Origin: Candidatus Saccharimonadales bacterium
Lineage (GTDB): Bacteria > Patescibacteriota > Saccharimonadia > Saccharimonadales > JBGSXW01
Length of the DNA stretch: 64,000 nt
Assembly (NCBI GenBank): GCA_041751215.1
Contig: JBGSXW010000002.1
Span: 3,123 to 67,122, forward strand
Direction of reading: 5' to 3'
The first letter of the stretch is position 1, and each line of letters begins with the position of its first letter. The notes below the pieces were generated by a model. The model saw only the letters and a list, made by a program, of their open reading frames with translations. It was not told the DNA's origin and searched no databases. Both the position numbers and the translations under genes were made by a program. Below are positions 22,553 through 47,202 of this stretch, one piece after another.

Positions 22553-22688
22553 TTCTTAGCTCCAAATCGGGCAGATATACTTCACCGTCTTTGATGACCA
22601 TGCCTAATGCTTTAAAATTATCTCTGAGCTTAAAAAGATCGTCGAAAAGCGGTTCTAAATTAATACTAGTGAGCTCACCAAAGTAAGC

Positions 22689-22875
22689 CACCCACCTTGC
22701 GTGGGTGTTTTACTTTGGTACGCTCTGCGAGCGTAGAATTCGTAGGGTTCGATAACAACGAGCACGCACAGGAACTACCTCCTAGTTCCGAGCATGCGAG
22801 GAGGTTATACTTCGAGTACTCCCGTAGGGATCACCAATCTAAGGACGCCAGCTTGCTGGTGTTTTTAGATTGGTG
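22689..22875 (+). other. structured intergenic region with two terminator-like hairpins on the + strand
   Basis: cacccac-cttgc-gtgggtg+TTTT (22689-22711). Mutually exclusive hairpins ggaacta..tagttcc and cctcc..ggagg. Nested hairpin caccaatctaa...ttagattggtg (22832-22875) encloses gccag-cttg-ctggt+TTTTT (22847-22866). No + strand gene is nearby. Confidence 0.3.
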
Positions 22876-22890
22876 ACTTTGTGTACGAAT

Positions 22891-27588: not shown

Positions 27589-28328
27589 GTGGCCTCACGC
27601 AATTGGATAGAGCTCAACGCAGCGGCGCAAGCTGCTGGTCGGCACGTCTGTGCTGGCATCGACCTCGACCTGAGCAAGCTGCCGGCTGGACTGGAGACTC
27701 CAGAAGGTCAGCTGTCGGCATGGTGGATCGCACCGGAGTCGACGCCATCACGATCACCCCGTACATGGGGCGGATCAAAGGGCTGCAACCGTTCCTCGAT
27801 CGGGCCGACAAGGGCGCGATCGTGCTCTGCCGGACCAGCAATGCCGGCGGTGCCGAGACGCAGGACATCCCCTGTGTGCCCCTGTTCGATCCCGACACGG
27901 AGCAGTTCTACGCGAGCGAGCGTCACTACGAGCTCGAGAACGGTCACCCGCCCACGGTGCTCATGAACGATGCGATGCGTATGCCGTACTACAAGTACAT
28001 CGCCTACCGTGTGACCAGCGCGTGGAACGCCAACGGCAACTGCGTGATGGTGGTCGGCGCGACGGTTCCGGAGGAGATGGTCGAGATCCGCAAGATCGCC
28101 GGCAACATGCCGTTGCTCATTCCGGGCATCGGCAAGCAAGGCGGCGACCTCAAGTCGGCGGTGCTCTCGGGCATCGACAGCGAGGGTCAGGGCATCATCG
28201 TGAACAACAGCTCCGCGCTGACGTTCGCGTCCGATGGGCCGGACTACGCCGATGCTGCGGCCAAGGTGGCCGAAGGAATGCACAAGGAGATCACGGAGAT
28301 CATCGCCCAGCACCTCGCTGCGGCCTGA
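27589..28328 (+). pseudogene. pyrF: orotidine-5'-phosphate decarboxylase (type 2 pyrF), apparently disrupted
   Basis: A GTG start after aaggagag gives ...HVCAGIDLDLSKLP (the N-terminal substrate-binding motif) in one frame. From ~27720 the homology continues in another frame (GVDAITITPYMG, VLCRTSNAGG, LLIPGIGKQGGD). The ~55-aa segment that should carry DxKxxD is absent. Confidence 0.55.
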
Positions 28329-28345
28329 ACGACCTAGGAGGTCAC

Positions 28346-29041
28346 ATGGGAGCAATCTACGACGCCCTGGTGGAGAATGATGGCATCCACTTGGGTGGCC
28401 ACTTCATCTACACCAGCGGCGTCCACGTCGAGCGCTACCACAACGTGCGCTGGTCGGCCTGCGACAACGACACCATGTCGATGATCGCGTCAGACATGGT
28501 CGACCCGCAGTGGGCTGGTCAAGTCGACGTCGTCTTCGGTCCAGAGACCTTGGGTCGGACTTTCGTGGATCGAGTTGGCCAGGCAGCGTCGCAACAAGGC
28601 GTTACTGGCCTGAAGGTCATGTGGTGCCAGATCGTCAAGCACGATGACGGCACTCGTGAGGTGCGCTTGCCAGACGAAGAGATGTACGGCTTCAGCCGTT
28701 ACCTCAAGCCTGGTGCCAAGGTGTGGATCATCGACGACGTGCTGTCCAAGGGCACGACTTCCCTCTTGGTCCTCAACTTCTTGCGCGCATTCGGCGTTGA
28801 AATCGTCGGTGTTTCGGCTGTGCTTCGGCTCAACCAGACGGTGACGGCGAAAGTGCTGGGTGTCCCTGCGCTGCAATTCCTCGAAGACGTCGTCGGCGTC
28901 GAGATGCTCAGCGAAGCCGAGTGCCAGGAACGCGGCATGTGCTCGCGCAACGAGCCGATCGTGCTCAAGCCCGGTCACGGATTCGAGTACCAGATCGAGC
29001 ACCCCGATTACCCCGGAGGATACGTCGATCTCGATCGATGA
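28346..29041 (+). CDS. type I phosphoribosyltransferase (orotate PRTase-like)
   Basis: ATG after ggaggtcac inside track ORF 28022..29041. PRPP-binding loop KVWIIDDVLSKGTTS, with strong GC3. Confidence 0.7.
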   Translation: MGAIYDALVENDGIHLGGHFIYTSGVHVERYHNVRWSACDNDTMSMIASDMVDPQWAGQVDVVFGPETLGRTFVDRVGQAASQQGVTGLKVMWCQIVKHDDGTREVRLPDEEMYGFSRYLKPGAKVWIIDDVLSKGTTSLLVLNFLRAFGVEIVGVSAVLRLNQTVTAKVLGVPALQFLEDVVGVEMLSEAECQERGMCSRNEPIVLKPGHGFEYQIEHPDYPGGYVDLDR

Positions 29042-29306
29042 CACCTCTTTGTCCTATCCGACCTTGCCGGTCGATACTTTTCCCTTTTGGGATTTGTGTC
29101 GGCCGGCTTTCTCTTTGGCCGCTCTTCAGCGCGAATCAACGTGGCCCAGTCGCCTGGCACAGCCAGTCGTGACGGCCACTCTGCGTCACGTGCTCTGTTG
29201 CTCGCCAGCAGTACTTTCGTGTGTACAACTGAGCTCTGCTACTCGCACCTTCCTTGTGCTTCATCACTGAAGAGACGCCCAAACTAACCGAGGGTTGGCT
29301 ACTAAT

Positions 29307-29520
29307 TGGTTTATTACTACTGCCGCCGCGTCTAGTAAAACCTCTGAACTTGTAAGGACAGAACCTGGCGTGACGAGGACTGTCCGCCAGCTGGCGGACG
29401 GACTCCGCAGTCACCCAAGTTCTGTCTGAAGCAAGTTCATGAGTGTTTTGGTAGTAGCGGGATAGTTTTGGGGCACCTTTTCTAAAAAGGCGCCACTACC
29501 CTCGCCGGGAGCGACAAGCA
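29307..29520. repeat. structured repeat, copy A (inverted relative to copy B)
   Basis: Core 29337-29516 aligns to the reverse complement of 43146-43317. It folds as a long hairpin plus two short hairpins and begins a few nt beyond the response-regulator stop. Confidence 0.7.
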
Positions 29521-29524
29521 AAGA

Positions 29525-29956
29525 CTAACTAGTTGGTCCGGTAGCTGGCCCCTGCGATTGCTCGGGCACTTCCCCGAACTTCTCGATCTGCTTGATCAGC
29601 TCGACTAGTTTGCGCGGTGTAATATCAGCTTTAATCAAATATCCATCGGCTCGCTCTTCGATTGCAGCTCGGGTTTTTTCGTCCTGGTCGAGGTTGGTCG
29701 TAACTACTACCTTGGTGTTTGGTAGTCCTTGTCCATCAACACCGCGGATCTTGTTAAGCACCTCAATACCGGTCATGTCGGGAATCATAAGGTCTAGTAG
29801 AACTAGGTCGTACTTTCCGGTTTGCGCCATTTCCAGACCCTTAGGACCAGTAATCACCTCATCGACTTCATAACCAGCCCGGCGCAGCGCCCGAGCGTAG
29901 AGTTCGCTGATAAAGCGATCATCTTCGATACATAGAATGGTTTTTAATCCAGCCAT
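29525..29956 (-). CDS. single-domain response regulator (CheY-like receiver)
   Basis: 143 aa with ILCIEDD, DLVLLDLMIPDMTG and a YLIK-type lysine region; there is no output domain. Confidence 0.85.
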   Translation of the reverse strand: MAGLKTILCIEDDRFISELYARALRRAGYEVDEVITGPKGLEMAQTGKYDLVLLDLMIPDMTGIEVLNKIRGVDGQGLPNTKVVVTTNLDQDEKTRAAIEERADGYLIKADITPRKLVELIKQIEKFGEVPEQSQGPATGPTS

Positions 29957-41243: not shown

Positions 41244-41438
41244 AAATTTAGTTTAGCACCTTTGACTAAATTGCCAGAACCTTGTAAAATAAACGCGTAC
41301 TTTAACAGTTCACACCTCCTTTGAGTACGGCACTTTGTTGCCCTTTTTTGCTTCATGGCACCAATGCGCCGTACTCAAAAGCTATCGACGGGAAATTCCT
41401 GTCACTATGTAGCATACGCGGCAGAGAGAAGGTTCGTC

Positions 41439-42218
41439 ATGACGACCGACGTCACCGACGAAATGCTTGGGCGCCTGTCCAAGAAGCACCACGAGTTGTA
41501 CCGAAGGGTCAGGGAGGGCTCACTCGATCCCGAGATGGTGCTCGATGGGCTGCAGTGGCTGATCGAAGGGGGCTTCAGATCAAAGCCGAAGCCGTTCCTT
41601 TTCGAACAGTCTGACGAGCAGCTCTTCAAGGCCATGGAGTGGTGGGGGCCGCACTTCAGCGATGTGGAATGGGAGGACGCCCAGTACCAGATCCCCGACT
41701 GGCCATCCGGAGGGCTTGTGGCTCCAGTGCTGGTTCCCTACTTCAGCACCGTCCAACAGACGTTCGAGCTGTTGTGGCGCACTGTCACCGAGGTTCACCC
41801 GACTATCACTCGCCGAGAGGACTTGCTGTCGGATCCAACCCACCTGAGGCCGTACACGGACACGGCATTCAAGAGCACCGATCACCCGGTCAACACCCTG
41901 CGCTGGGAGATCATTGACTTCAAGGGTGTCGACAACGCCATGCCATGTGAAGTGCGTCATGTGGGCTCACCCCATGCTGCCATCTTGGCCGCGGCCTGCC
42001 TCCATCCTGAATGGGTAAAGGCGATAGATGGCGGTGAAGTTCCAAACGTGTGGCTGTCTGGCTATGAAGTCAGTCTTGCTGGTGGCGAGAGGTGGTCGCA
42101 TGTTCCGGTTCTCGAGCTGTCGGGTGTCGGATCCCAGCTGCGACTCAGCGCCCATTTTGCCAGTGCCACTGAGCCGGGATATGCAAATCCAATCCGACGG
42201 AGGTTGTTAGAAGATTGA
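41439..42218 (+). CDS. hypothetical protein (single-gene GC-rich cassette)
   Basis: Start taken at Met29 of track ORF 41355..42218. Strong GC3 and no recognised motif. Confidence 0.55.
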   Translation: MTTDVTDEMLGRLSKKHHELYRRVREGSLDPEMVLDGLQWLIEGGFRSKPKPFLFEQSDEQLFKAMEWWGPHFSDVEWEDAQYQIPDWPSGGLVAPVLVPYFSTVQQTFELLWRTVTEVHPTITRREDLLSDPTHLRPYTDTAFKSTDHPVNTLRWEIIDFKGVDNAMPCEVRHVGSPHAAILAAACLHPEWVKAIDGGEVPNVWLSGYEVSLAGGERWSHVPVLELSGVGSQLRLSAHFASATEPGYANPIRRRLLED

Positions 42219-42350: not shown

Positions 42351-42432
42351 CATTCTTAAGATCTATTAAGCTAAATACGTAATTCCGGTCGCCTAATTCC
42401 CTTTCTTAATGTTGTCTGCTAGAGTTGTTGTG

Positions 42433-43137
42433 ATGAACAAACGAGTGTTAATTAAAGTTTCGGGCGAGCAACTAGCCGGTAAGCAAGAGAACGGTTTAGA
42501 TCGTGACTTTATGGAATGGCTCTCTAAAGAAATAAAAAAAGTTACAAGTGCTGGTATTGAAGTAGCTATCGTCGTTGGCGGCGGAAATTATATTCGGGGG
42601 GCTGATTTTGCCGGCGATGGCATTGAAGCAGCAACCGCTCACTACATGGGTATGATGGCAACTGTTATTAACGGCATGGGCCTAACGGACGTGCTGGAGC
42701 ATAACGGCGTGCCGACTCGTTTACAGACTAGCTTTGAAGTTAAGTCGGTTGCCGAGCCATTTATTCGTCGCCGAGCACTTCGTCATCTCGATAAAGGACG
42801 CGTAGTTATTTGCGCAGCCGGAACCGGACGTCCATTTGTAACCACCGATAGTGCTTCGGTCTTGTTTGCTCTTGAGCTAGGTTGCGACGTGGTCCTAAAG
42901 GCTACAAATGTTGACGGAGTTTATGACGACGATCCGGCTAAAAACGACCAAGCTAAACGCTTCGAAAGCCTATCGTTTCAAGAGGCCATCGAAAACCCCA
43001 AGATCAAGGTTATGGACAAGGCGGCAATCGGTCTTGCAATGGAACAAAAGCTGCCAATCGTAGTGTTTGATATTCGCCAAGAAGGTAATATTCTTAAAGC
43101 CGCTCAAGGGGACGGTATAGGAACAAAGATTTCCTGA
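42433..43137 (+). CDS. pyrH: UMP kinase
   Basis: MNKRVLIKVSGEQLAG and VVGGGNYIRG. An alternative upstream ATG lies at 42409. Confidence 0.9.
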   Translation: MNKRVLIKVSGEQLAGKQENGLDRDFMEWLSKEIKKVTSAGIEVAIVVGGGNYIRGADFAGDGIEAATAHYMGMMATVINGMGLTDVLEHNGVPTRLQTSFEVKSVAEPFIRRRALRHLDKGRVVICAAGTGRPFVTTDSASVLFALELGCDVVLKATNVDGVYDDDPAKNDQAKRFESLSFQEAIENPKIKVMDKAAIGLAMEQKLPIVVFDIRQEGNILKAAQGDGIGTKIS

Positions 43138-43140
43138 GAC

Positions 43141-43362
43141 GCTCTTTGTCGCTCCCGCGACGGGGTAATGACACCTTTTCAAAAAGGTGTCCCAAAAACT
43201 TTCACGCTACTACCAAAACACTCATGAACTTATTTCAGACAGAACTTGGGTGACTGCGGAGTCCGTCTGAACAGTCCTCATCACACCAGGCTCTGTCCTC
43301 GCAAGTTCAGAGGTTTTGATAGAGGCGGGGCCTCCGTCTTCTACCGGTAGGAGCAGGAAACC
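43141..43362. repeat. structured repeat, copy B (inverted relative to copy A)
   Basis: It starts 4 nt after the pyrH stop. Core 43146-43317 is the reverse complement of copy A with roughly 85-90 percent identity by eye. Confidence 0.7.
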
Positions 43363-43417
43363 TCCCTCCCCAAATTCAGGAGTTTTAGCTGATGCTTATA
43401 CCAAGAATAGGCTGAAG

Positions 43418-44518
43418 CTAGTTACGGCCTTGCTCGTTAAAGATTTCTTTGGCAACGTCCCACAGTTCTTGGTCGTTAAACTTGCTGTAGCGCCAGTACC
43501 ACCATTCGCTTCCCCACCAGTAGACATCGCGCATGCCCGTGGCCTTAACATAGCCAATGCGGCCTTTTAGGCGCTCGGCATCCATAGACTTGTCTTGCTC
43601 CTCTATGGATAGGTTTTGCGTAGCTTCCGGACCCCACGGCTCTCCTTGAAGCTCGTGAACTATAGAATCTCGTTGTTTGAGTAGTTTAATCCAGCCAGCG
43701 CGCAACCCGTGATACCAGCCTGGCATAGGGTATTCAAGATAAGCGTTGGTATAGGTGCCGTCATAAACTCGCTTATAAACAGAATGGCCGTAAATGTCGG
43801 GGGTCGGTTCGTTGATTGGTAGCCAGAAATTGCTACTCAGACTAACAATGACTGGATGATCTGGGTCTAGCTGCTTTACAAGATTATATTCACTGACTAG
43901 TCGTTCGCGTCGATGGTCTTTGCAGTCGCCAAAACTAACAATGAAGAACTCATTTTCTAATTGATAGCTCTCTAGCGCCGGACTATCTTTGTAGCGGTTA
44001 ACCACTACTTTTAGGTAGCTATTGACTGCATCTTCTAGTTCCCGGTCATTTAAGTTGGTGGCCCAGCTCGGCTCATGGCATTCGGGCCAGCGAGGCTGAC
44101 GCATGCCTATCGCTAGACTTATCTTTCCCTCGGCAGCTTCGATAATTTCAAATTGACGATCTAGGCTACTAAAGTTGTACTTTCCTGGCTGCGGTTCGTG
44201 CAGGTCCCAGTAGCTCATCAGACGGAATTGTTTTACCCCGAGATCATCAATAAGCGCTTTTAGGGCTTCCTCGCTGTCTAGCCCGTAGTCGCCGGCCTGC
44301 TTAGTCGAAAAGCTTACGCCGTGCCGATATGGTTGATTTGACTGAGATTGATACCAATAAAACAACACGGCTAGGTTTATCAGTGCTGCAAAGAGAATCG
44401 ACCCTAGCAGTGCCAGATAGATAACTCGCTGTTTGCTCACGTGTCGGCGGAACCGCTTTGGCCAGCTTTTTAGGCCCTTGGATTTCTTTAATTTACGCAT
44501 CTTAACAGTATACTGCAA
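43418..44518 (-). CDS. membrane-anchored TIM-barrel glycoside-hydrolase-like protein
   Basis: 366 aa with an N-terminal TM helix. The YQLENEFF (NE acid/base-like motif) and overall pattern resemble clan GH-A enzymes; the family is not assigned. Confidence 0.5.
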   Translation of the reverse strand: MQYTVKMRKLKKSKGLKSWPKRFRRHVSKQRVIYLALLGSILFAALINLAVLFYWYQSQSNQPYRHGVSFSTKQAGDYGLDSEEALKALIDDLGVKQFRLMSYWDLHEPQPGKYNFSSLDRQFEIIEAAEGKISLAIGMRQPRWPECHEPSWATNLNDRELEDAVNSYLKVVVNRYKDSPALESYQLENEFFIVSFGDCKDHRRERLVSEYNLVKQLDPDHPVIVSLSSNFWLPINEPTPDIYGHSVYKRVYDGTYTNAYLEYPMPGWYHGLRAGWIKLLKQRDSIVHELQGEPWGPEATQNLSIEEQDKSMDAERLKGRIGYVKATGMRDVYWWGSEWWYWRYSKFNDQELWDVAKEIFNEQGRN

Positions 44519-46658: not shown

Positions 46659-46700
46659 GCGACAATATTAGCATGTACGTTTTCAAGAAAAGAAAAAAGA

Positions 46701-47090
46701 CAAGAAACACAGTTTATACGCAAGGGGTGGGGGCCGACTGACTAGTCGAACTATTGCCAGTCGGCCCCCAATGCTATTGATTGCTCCAATATTGCATTGC
46801 GATGAAGGCTCGACAGCCCAGAGACGCAGAGTCTCCCACAAGAGGACGCGGGCGGAGTTCGGAAGGGGTTGCGGCCATATCTTGGGCATGGGACGTGCGG
46901 GCTGTCGAGCCTGACTTTTAGAAAACCTTCGCTAACGAGGGCCTTCTATTAGAACTCCCCGATCGGGTGCTCTGCTTGCGAGGCAGATAGGGAGGGAGTG
47001 CATCCGATCGGGGCCGACACAGCGATGAGGTGCAAAACGGCGAACCGTTCCGACGTCGTGGCTGCGCGCGGATTTGAACTGTGTTTCTTG
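46701..47090. other. GC-rich hairpin-rich non-coding element bounded by 14-nt perfect inverted repeats
   Basis: caagaaacacagtt (46701-46714) vs aactgtgtttcttg (47077-47090). Internal perfect stems are gggggccgactg/cagtcggccccc (46729-46740/46758-46769) and ggctcgacagccc/gggctgtcgagcc (46807-46819/46899-46911, apex GGAA). Confidence 0.6.
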
Positions 47091-47202
47091 CCGGTAAGAA
47101 CTTTTAGTCATAAACACGACCAAAGTTCATATATTTAACATTAAAAACATCGATTAGTCAATCAGTTAATTGTCGTTTTTAGACTGTCTGCAGGGGGCTA
47201 AA

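Follow-up and report, generated by a model that had tools for sequence, protein, structure and literature searches.

ERIC/IRU elements are imperfect palindromes of enterobacterial intergenic regions; they are non-coding and have neither a target-site duplication nor a known transposase. Correia elements can be cleaved by RNase III and can function as terminators, and the known cases of miniature inverted-repeat transposable elements (MITEs) are co-transcribed with their neighbours. REP/BIME sequences that follow stop codons stabilise the upstream mRNA, and within ∼15 nt of the stop they can stall terminating ribosomes. Finally, attC sites work in a strand-specific manner as a folded single strand with extrahelical bases, and carry the core motifs RYYYAAC (R'') and GTTRRRY (R'). 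Here we describe an inverted pair of non-coding repeats of ∼190 nt in a 64,000-nt stretch of DNA (the window) from a Candidatus Saccharimonadales bacterium (GenBank assembly GCA_041751215.1, contig JBGSXW010000002.1, positions 3,123 to 67,122), which an initial annotation of the sequence had picked out as structured repeats. The repeated unit stands at two unrelated junctions of convergent genes, in opposite orientations, folds strongly and has no coding capacity. We see about an even chance that this is a non-coding palindromic insertion element, low in copy number and specific to its lineage, in the genome of a member of Candidatus Saccharibacteria, and that it belongs to the ERIC/IRU, Correia, RPE and MITE-like class. 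Copy A is read on the + strand and copy B on the − strand (Table 1); we call this strand A+/B- and its complement A-/B+.

Like ERIC/IRU elements, the unit contains a non-coding imperfect palindrome of 120–130 nt, its presence varies between related genomes, and it has no target-site duplication and no known transposase. Its position recalls their place in transcribed intergenic regions near gene ends, and the 10-nt difference between the hairpin tips of the two copies may be compared with the size variants that arise in ERIC/IRU by internal insertion. It thus has the features of an ERIC- or REP-type sequence, namely a non-coding imperfect palindrome in an intergenic region near the 3' ends of genes. 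It differs from ERIC/IRU in having no sequence similarity to anything in 5,426 complete E. coli genomes (blastn, word size 11), in its host, a member of the Saccharibacteria (Candidate Phyla Radiation, CPR), in an extra non-palindromic tail of ∼55 nt and in being seen in two copies. With the MITEs Correia/NEMIS (Neisseria), RUP/BOX (Streptococcus) and RPE (Rickettsia) it shares the properties of being short, non-autonomous, hairpin-forming and close to gene ends; in contrast to them it lacks boundaries set by terminal inverted repeats (TIRs), a target-site duplication and a cognate transposase, its apparent copy number is very low, and pairing is conserved along the whole stem. The MITE-like nature suggested in the initial annotation therefore holds in part: the element is repeated and non-coding and has empty sites in relatives (L001, L030, L031 and L032 at site B, L003 and L004 at site A), whereas it shows no target-site duplication and, in the ∼76 kb of the source organism covered, no high copy number, and the ends of the palindrome do not mark the ends of the repeated unit. 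As with REP/BIME sequences, the position is between convergent genes, and on A-/B+ the first small hairpin comes 9–10 nt after the stop codons of the response regulator gene and pyrH. However, REPs are 20–40 nt long, highly repeated and associated with RAYT proteins, while here the unit is ∼190 nt long, two copies and no RAYT were seen, and the wobble pairs favour the other strand. The likeness to attC sites lies in an imperfect palindrome of up to ∼140 nt directly after a stop codon; but the base of the stem mismatches the core consensus given above at 2–3 positions of each 7-mer, neither a cassette array nor an integron integrase was seen near it among the genes examined, and the flanks are housekeeping genes in conserved synteny.

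The two copies are 84% identical across 185 aligned columns. An inverted-repeat search returned two pairs of arms, 29397–29501/43163–43267 (105 nt, 87% identity) and 29326–29383/43271–43328 (58 nt, 86%), which are split by the 10-nt indel at the tip of the hairpin. By blastn, copy A matched copy B with E = 7e-51; nhmmer on the pair gave E = 1.5e-79 for copy A and 6.7e-82 for copy B, and the covariance-model scores were 235 and 230.8 bits, respectively. The inverted pair of structured repeats that had been proposed was thus recovered by repeat search, blastn and nhmmer. Identity had been estimated by eye at 85–90%; it is 90% in the long hairpin and 73% in the 3' tail. Each unit consists of an imperfect hairpin of ∼125–135 nt followed by the ∼55-nt tail, in which there are two small hairpins. 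The homology between the copies sets in ∼6 nt ahead of the long hairpin and extends ∼55 nt past its other side, which makes the unit asymmetric, with limits that are not those of the palindrome.

An independent assembly of the same organism (Logan assembly of SRR28170463) reproduced the gene-proximal ∼120–130 nt of each copy. One of its contigs (L036) enters copy A on the response-regulator side and covers it between the stop codon and a 30-mer shared by the two copies, and another (L002) carries the first 133 nt of copy B from the pyrH side. Both terminate at this identical 30-mer (...GGGTGACTGCGGAGTC), as a k-mer assembler is expected to do at a repeat. Since independent contigs contain the gene-proximal part of each copy, the repeat is not an artefact of a single assembly.

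Both copies are insertions relative to related genomes, because empty sites were found in the relatives. They both sit between convergent genes, as the initial annotation had it and as the positions of the open reading frames (ORFs) bear out. The closest named relatives of the pyrH and response-regulator proteins come from Candidatus Saccharibacteria/Saccharimonadales; the source contig measures 419 kb. At site B the spacer between pyrH and the glycosyl-hydrolase-like gene is 280 nt in the window (43138–43417). L001, the closest relative (pyrH 88% identical), has 2 nt between the two stop codons; in other relatives the genes overlap by 8 nt (L030) or are separated by 5 nt (L031) or 61 nt (L032). 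The glycosyl-hydrolase-like gene (43418–44518) is syntenic in L001 and L032. At site A, 483 nt lie between the stop of a phosphoribosyltransferase-like gene (29041) and that of the response regulator (29525). The corresponding spacer in L003 (response regulator 92% identical) is 75 nt and holds only the neighbour's hairpin and T-tract terminator, and in L004 (87%) it has the same start as in L003. The DNA added at site A amounts to ∼405 nt (about 29120–29524), between the T-tract of this terminator and the response-regulator stop.

The two insertions have only a part in common. On A+/B- each consists of copy-specific DNA, the shared unit and 7–8 nt, after which comes the stop codon belonging to the oppositely oriented gene; copy A ends 7 nt from the response-regulator stop (29525–29527, − strand) and copy B 8 nt from the pyrH stop (43135–43137, + strand). 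The copy-specific parts of A and B have no similarity to each other above shuffled controls, and neither blastn nor tblastx matched them to any of the loci compared; that of insertion B is unstructured (z = +0.6 for 43331–43417). We saw no target-site duplication, either flanking the shared unit or flanking the insertions in full. Gene order and orientation at both junctions are collinear with the relatives, and therefore no rearrangement explains the copies. Orthologous DNA is 66–80% identical between the window and L001/L003 (blastn segments); a duplication later than the lineage split would fit, because the copies are 84–90% identical. In a more distant relative (L005, 1527–1601), a perfect 14-bp hairpin without a U-tract, GCCACTAGGGTCGA-CGAA-TCGACCCTAGTGGC, follows the response-regulator stop, and strong U-less hairpins after stop codons may be common in this group.

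The unit folds strongly on either strand. The minimum free energies as RNA were -100.8 kcal/mol for A+, -88.6 for B-, -102.7 for A- and -76.0 for B+, with z from -4.3 to -8.4, and not one shuffle in 200 reached such a value; as single-stranded DNA, the hairpins folded with z from -4.6 to -8.4. The consensus fold contains the helices AAAAC/GUUUU, GAACUUG/CAAGUUC, GGACAGAAC.UGG/CCA.GUUCUGUCU and GUGAC/GUCAC, which the initial annotation had listed as parts of one long hairpin common to both copies; the UACUAC/GUAGUA pairing in the same list is present in copy A only. The longer apex of copy A extends the apical stem by 10 nt, in agreement with the earlier description. The short hairpin occurs in both copies and differs between them by one compensatory G-C to A-U change, the double change already noted, with an added A·C mismatch in copy A. 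The third small hairpin is found in copy B and can be read directly from the sequence of copy A, whose predicted folds do not contain its pairing.

Within the long hairpin, the copies differ at 5 of 96 paired and at 7 of 27 unpaired positions (Fisher p = 0.004). Each of the five paired differences is a transition that keeps the pair as G·U or U·G on A+/B-, and none breaks a pair, so that the differences do preserve the structure, as had been claimed. When five random substitutions were placed at paired positions by simulation, the same outcome had a probability of 0.002–0.017, depending on the transition bias. On A+/B- all 48 pairs are canonical in both copies, compared with 45/48 and 42/48 on the complementary strand. 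Because pairing is kept preferentially on A+/B-, the hairpin seems to be selected as a folded single strand, preferentially this one; with n = 2, the sequences are too few for a real covariation test, and the A·C mismatch in the short hairpin points the other way. It is on the complement, A-/B+, that the element comes after a stop codon, and the wobble pairs therefore do not suggest that it is placed in the 3' untranslated region of the response regulator or pyrH. The initial annotation was right that each copy starts just after the stop codon of a gene, while the strand that it assumed is not the one favoured by the wobble pairs. At a convergent junction, both strands may well be transcribed.

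We searched for known families and further copies. At gathering thresholds Rfam reported nothing in the whole window but tRNA, so the Rfam scan suggested earlier yields no family for the element, with 6S, SRP and Y RNA among those that were not matched. In E-value mode the two insertions gave chance hairpins only (mir-3913 with 21.6 bits versus 100, SmY and snoU83B), and there was no match to group II introns or HEARO even at E ≤ 10. The element matched nothing in phage and plasmid collections by blastn in distant mode. An exact 20-mer and a 22-mer from the two longest identical blocks had 0 matches in 185,579 species-representative genomes (source genome not included), and two exact 20-mers had 0 matches in JGI metagenomes. 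A 16-mer had 24 matches in IMG/VR, all of them chance, because nhmmer aligned only the surroundings of the 16-mer, with E ≥ 0.03. As spurious ORFs may have been called in other copies, a concatenated six-frame pseudo-protein of both copies was also compared with 5.8e9 protein clusters, with no match. Searches with nhmmer and a covariance model (R1) across the window and a further ∼70 kb, made up of loci of this organism and its relatives, found the two copies again and no third one, only palindromic reverse matches; the copy count covers ∼76 kb of the source organism (the window and L033–L036, which add ∼12 kb beyond it). In the literature on Saccharibacteria/Patescibacteria with MITEs, small RNAs (sRNAs) or hairpins we found no repeat or sRNA family of this kind. 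The initial annotation had named two outcomes that would speak against its proposal. Lack of conservation beyond this genome is what we observed, as far as the searches reached; many copies with target-site duplications, as in a plain MITE, were not seen in either respect. The sequence matches nothing known; as a type of object, short intergenic insertion elements that form hairpins are familiar from other bacteria.

Signals for expression were also scarce. A scan for sigma-70-type promoters found none inside or upstream of either copy, and no hairpin is followed by a U-tract on either strand of either copy, which speaks against the canonical terminator considered in the initial annotation. 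The sole terminator-like site near copy A is the neighbour gene's own, at 29059–29083. A coding role was rejected: the apex indel shifts the only longer frame, no frame is conserved, and the only shared micro-ORFs have 7–9 codons and no Shine-Dalgarno sequence. In insertion A, a spurious-looking ORF (29136–29414, − strand) matches zf-FPG_IleRS, the Fpg/IleRS C-terminal zinc finger, at residues 69–87 (∼29154–29210) with 20.7 bits against a cut-off of 21.3 (E = 3.6e-4). The match could be a decayed gene fragment or chance; being below the cut-off and without PDB or NCBIfam support, it was rejected as a gene remnant. The Pfam tables of the window genes and of the extra loci examined contain no transposase, reverse transcriptase, TnpB, Y1 transposase, integron integrase or tyrosine recombinase. 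Finally, attC sites, 6S RNA, SRP RNA, retrons, group II introns, bridge RNA and omega RNA were rejected because motifs or partner genes were missing, or on their Rfam scores.

As an insertion element of the ERIC/IRU and MITE-like class, the unit, which was duplicated with no promoter of its own, would most likely be transcribed by read-through from the adjoining convergent genes. The ∼48-bp hairpin would then form a structure at the end of the transcripts, where it could be a barrier to 3' exonucleases, make converging polymerases pause or stop, or be a substrate of RNase III. The element might have moved by transposition in trans or been copied by recombination after DNA uptake, both of which are possible. 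The spacers that received it were near zero, 0–61 nt at the pyrH junction and the terminator alone (75 nt) at the response-regulator junction. Several points weigh against this assignment. Only two copies are present in the part of the source genome covered, and neither insertion is flanked by a target-site duplication. The asymmetric unit, with homology running ∼55 nt past the palindrome, is unlike a simple TIR-bounded MITE. The insertions contain unrelated extra DNA (200 nt and 82 nt) for which the assignment does not account, and no transposase or partner gene appears in the Pfam tables of the window or the extra loci. The structure on which the pairs were counted was derived from the same two sequences, which inflates the apparent conservation of pairing. 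In addition, transcription of the element and any effect on the adjoining genes are hypothetical.

The asymmetry of the unit, with variable DNA adjoining it on one side only, would also be expected if it were the relic end or a single-strand recombination site of a larger mobile element, its hairpin acting as folded single-stranded DNA and the copy-specific DNA being decayed cargo. Possible sources are an IS200/IS605-type end or PATE, a site resembling integron attC, or an insertion behind terminators in the manner of group IIC introns. Pairing on one strand agrees with this, as hairpins of single-stranded DNA also tolerate G·T wobbles and the DNA fold reaches z = -8.4, and so do the 7–8 nt between one end and a stop codon in both copies, the placement of insertion A directly after a terminator T-tract, the presence in the genome of a conjugative element with serine recombinases, and the marginal gene-fragment match in the A-specific DNA. 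Yet the sequences found here, GTAAAAC or TCAAAAC, and GTTTTGG, do not fit the attC core motifs; the Rfam search gave no group II intron or HEARO, and none of the Y1 transposase, TnpB, integron integrase and reverse transcriptase is listed among the genes examined. The copy-specific parts share nothing, hence they are not nested truncations of one cargo, and the zinc-finger match stayed under the Pfam cut-off, with no PDB or NCBIfam counterpart. We regard such an origin as unlikely, if the least unlikely of the alternatives. A plain selfish MITE, in which the hairpin is a by-product of long TIRs and has no role as RNA or single-stranded DNA, would account for a palindromic, non-coding, intergenic sequence that varies in presence among relatives. 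TA...TA even brackets the palindrome in both copies (CTA before it and TAG after it), as in TA-duplicating MITEs of the IS630/mariner type. The homology, however, passes the TA on both sides (by ∼6 nt and ∼55 nt), hence the TA is not flanking DNA. Moreover, paired positions are conserved along the whole stem with only wobble-compatible changes, which binding of double-stranded DNA by a transposase does not predict, and there are two copies only, with no partner transposase seen in the genes examined. This makes a plain MITE improbable.

The preference for pairing on A+/B-, the compensatory pair in the short hairpin and the better conservation of the long hairpin (90%) than of the tail (73%) could also reflect a small family of independently transcribed regulatory RNAs, either trans-acting sRNAs or, given that on A+/B- the element is directed towards the convergent gene at its 3' end, cis-antisense RNAs that would run into the response-regulator and pyrH genes from their 3' ends. 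An sRNA family had been one of the suggestions of the initial annotation, and our results mostly speak against it. The homology starts ∼6 nt before the hairpin, hence the duplicated unit contains no promoter, the sigma-70-type scan predicted none upstream, and there is no terminator. The element is absent at these sites in all relatives examined and has no homologue in the collections searched, and its near-perfect 48-bp duplex leaves little single-stranded seed. We therefore consider independently transcribed RNAs to be less probable again than a plain MITE. The inverted orientation of the copies, which lie 13.7 kb apart with serine recombinases nearby, might suggest that they serve as substrates for inversion of the intervening ∼13.6-kb segment. 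This was rejected on collinearity, since gene order and orientation at both junctions are the same in relatives that have no element; the copies are 13–16% diverged, against frequent recombination, and the segment holds housekeeping genes (mreB, sortase, tRNA, pyrH). Inversion is accordingly the most improbable of these explanations, with hardly any chance of being correct.

Table 1. Positions in the window of the two copies, their hairpins and the borders of the insertions
Feature	Position	Strand	Basis and remarks
Copy A, shared element	29321..29517	+ (strand favoured by G·U pairs)	Alignment, covariance model, nhmmer, contig L036
Copy B, shared element	43146..43335	-	Alignment, covariance model, nhmmer; first 133 nt in contig L002
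Copy A, long imperfect hairpin	29327..29459	+	48 consensus bp; apex GUCCGCC-AGCU-GGCGGAC; DNA fold z = -8.4
Copy B, long hairpin	43205..43327	-	48 consensus bp; apex 10 nt shorter, GUUC-AGAC-GGAC
Copy A, short hairpin	29472..29494	+	GGCACCUUUU-CUA-AAAAGGCGCC, one A·C mismatch
Copy B, short hairpin	43170..43191	-	GACACCUUU-UUGA-AAAGGUGUC, perfect
Copy A, third small hairpin	29502..29514	+	UCGC-CGGGA-GCGA, read directly from the sequence
Copy B, third small hairpin	43148..43161	-	GUCGC-GGGA-GCGAC, GGGA loop
Copy-specific part of insertion A, ∼200 nt	29120..29320		Absent from the empty sites of L003 and L004
Copy-specific part of insertion B, 82 nt	43336..43417		Absent from the junctions of L001, L030, L031 and L032
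Left border of insertion A: older terminator (hairpin and T-tract) that belongs to the phosphoribosyltransferase-like gene	29059..29115	+	Same in L003 and L004
Response regulator	29525..29956	-	Pfam Response_reg, E = 1.3e-22
pyrH (UMP kinase)	42409..43137	+	Pfam AA_kinase; homologues named UMP kinase, Candidatus Saccharibacteria
Glycosyl-hydrolase-like gene, convergent with pyrH, right border of insertion B	43418..44518	-	Pfam Glyco_hydro_42

Several other features of the window were recorded. Its left third resembles a conjugative element that has integrated into the genome of a member of the Saccharibacteria. It encodes a large serine recombinase (350–1759, − strand), ParB_N, a Replic_Relax relaxase and a second serine recombinase, together with type IV secretion system (T4SS) genes (TrbC/T4SS pilin, TrbL, PrgI-like and TraC-like), and the GC content of positions 1 to ∼22800 is 0.43–0.46 versus 0.48–0.52 elsewhere; L033 (6256–15906), which lies to the left of the window, is counted in with this region. 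At this GC-content boundary, the presumed right end of the conjugative element, there are two strong hairpins (22671–22725 and 22831–22876, with 25-nt and 22-nt arms that are 84–86% complementary). Two direct repeats (45 and 64 nt, 87–88% identical) occur at 4827–4930 and 5244–5350, 417–420 nt apart; the first copies lie within ORF 4055–4945 and the second downstream of it, which suggests a repeated protein module.

Next to site A, the OMP-decarboxylase-like and phosphoribosyltransferase-like genes (∼27600–29041) have a markedly high GC content compared with the rest of the window (0.62 for 28001–29000). The same gene occupies this position in L003 (∼80% DNA identity), and an old horizontal acquisition of these genes is possible. 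Upstream of site B, ORF 41355–42218 (+ strand, 259–287 aa) lies between an Exo_endo_phos gene and pyrH, has no Pfam or NCBIfam match and is absent from the same position in L001; its family is widespread and uncharacterised, with 413 cluster representatives at E ≤ 1e-3 and 164 at E ≤ 1e-10. Further to the right, an unusually long intergenic region (46659–47202, 544 nt) upstream of a CobA/CobO/BtuR-like gene contains a perfect 14-nt inverted repeat (46806–46819/46899–46912) and a second one at 46957–47013, with no Rfam match; the spacer has an equal length in L001 but cannot be aligned.

The insertion-element assignment leaves room for a more far-reaching view, to which we give a low chance, about that of a plain MITE: the unit might be a mobile structured-RNA module of Saccharibacteria/CPR, a promoter-less cassette of ∼190 nt that is copied into near-zero convergent spacers and retained as a 'portable transcript end'. 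Its polarity to the adjacent stop codon would then be fixed, and the strand-specific 48-bp hairpin would insulate or process colliding transcripts. If true, such a module would be suited to genomes with extremely compressed intergenic regions. On present evidence the element is lineage-restricted and has two copies, it represents no widespread RNA class, and its broader impact is limited. If more copies exist, it could serve as a strain marker, it could be a cause of assembly breaks, and it would offer a small test case for the effect of hairpins at convergent junctions on expression. At both junctions the convergent genes of the relatives examined are 0–75 nt apart; even so compact a genome acquires structured non-coding insertions, and it does so exactly at the ends of genes.

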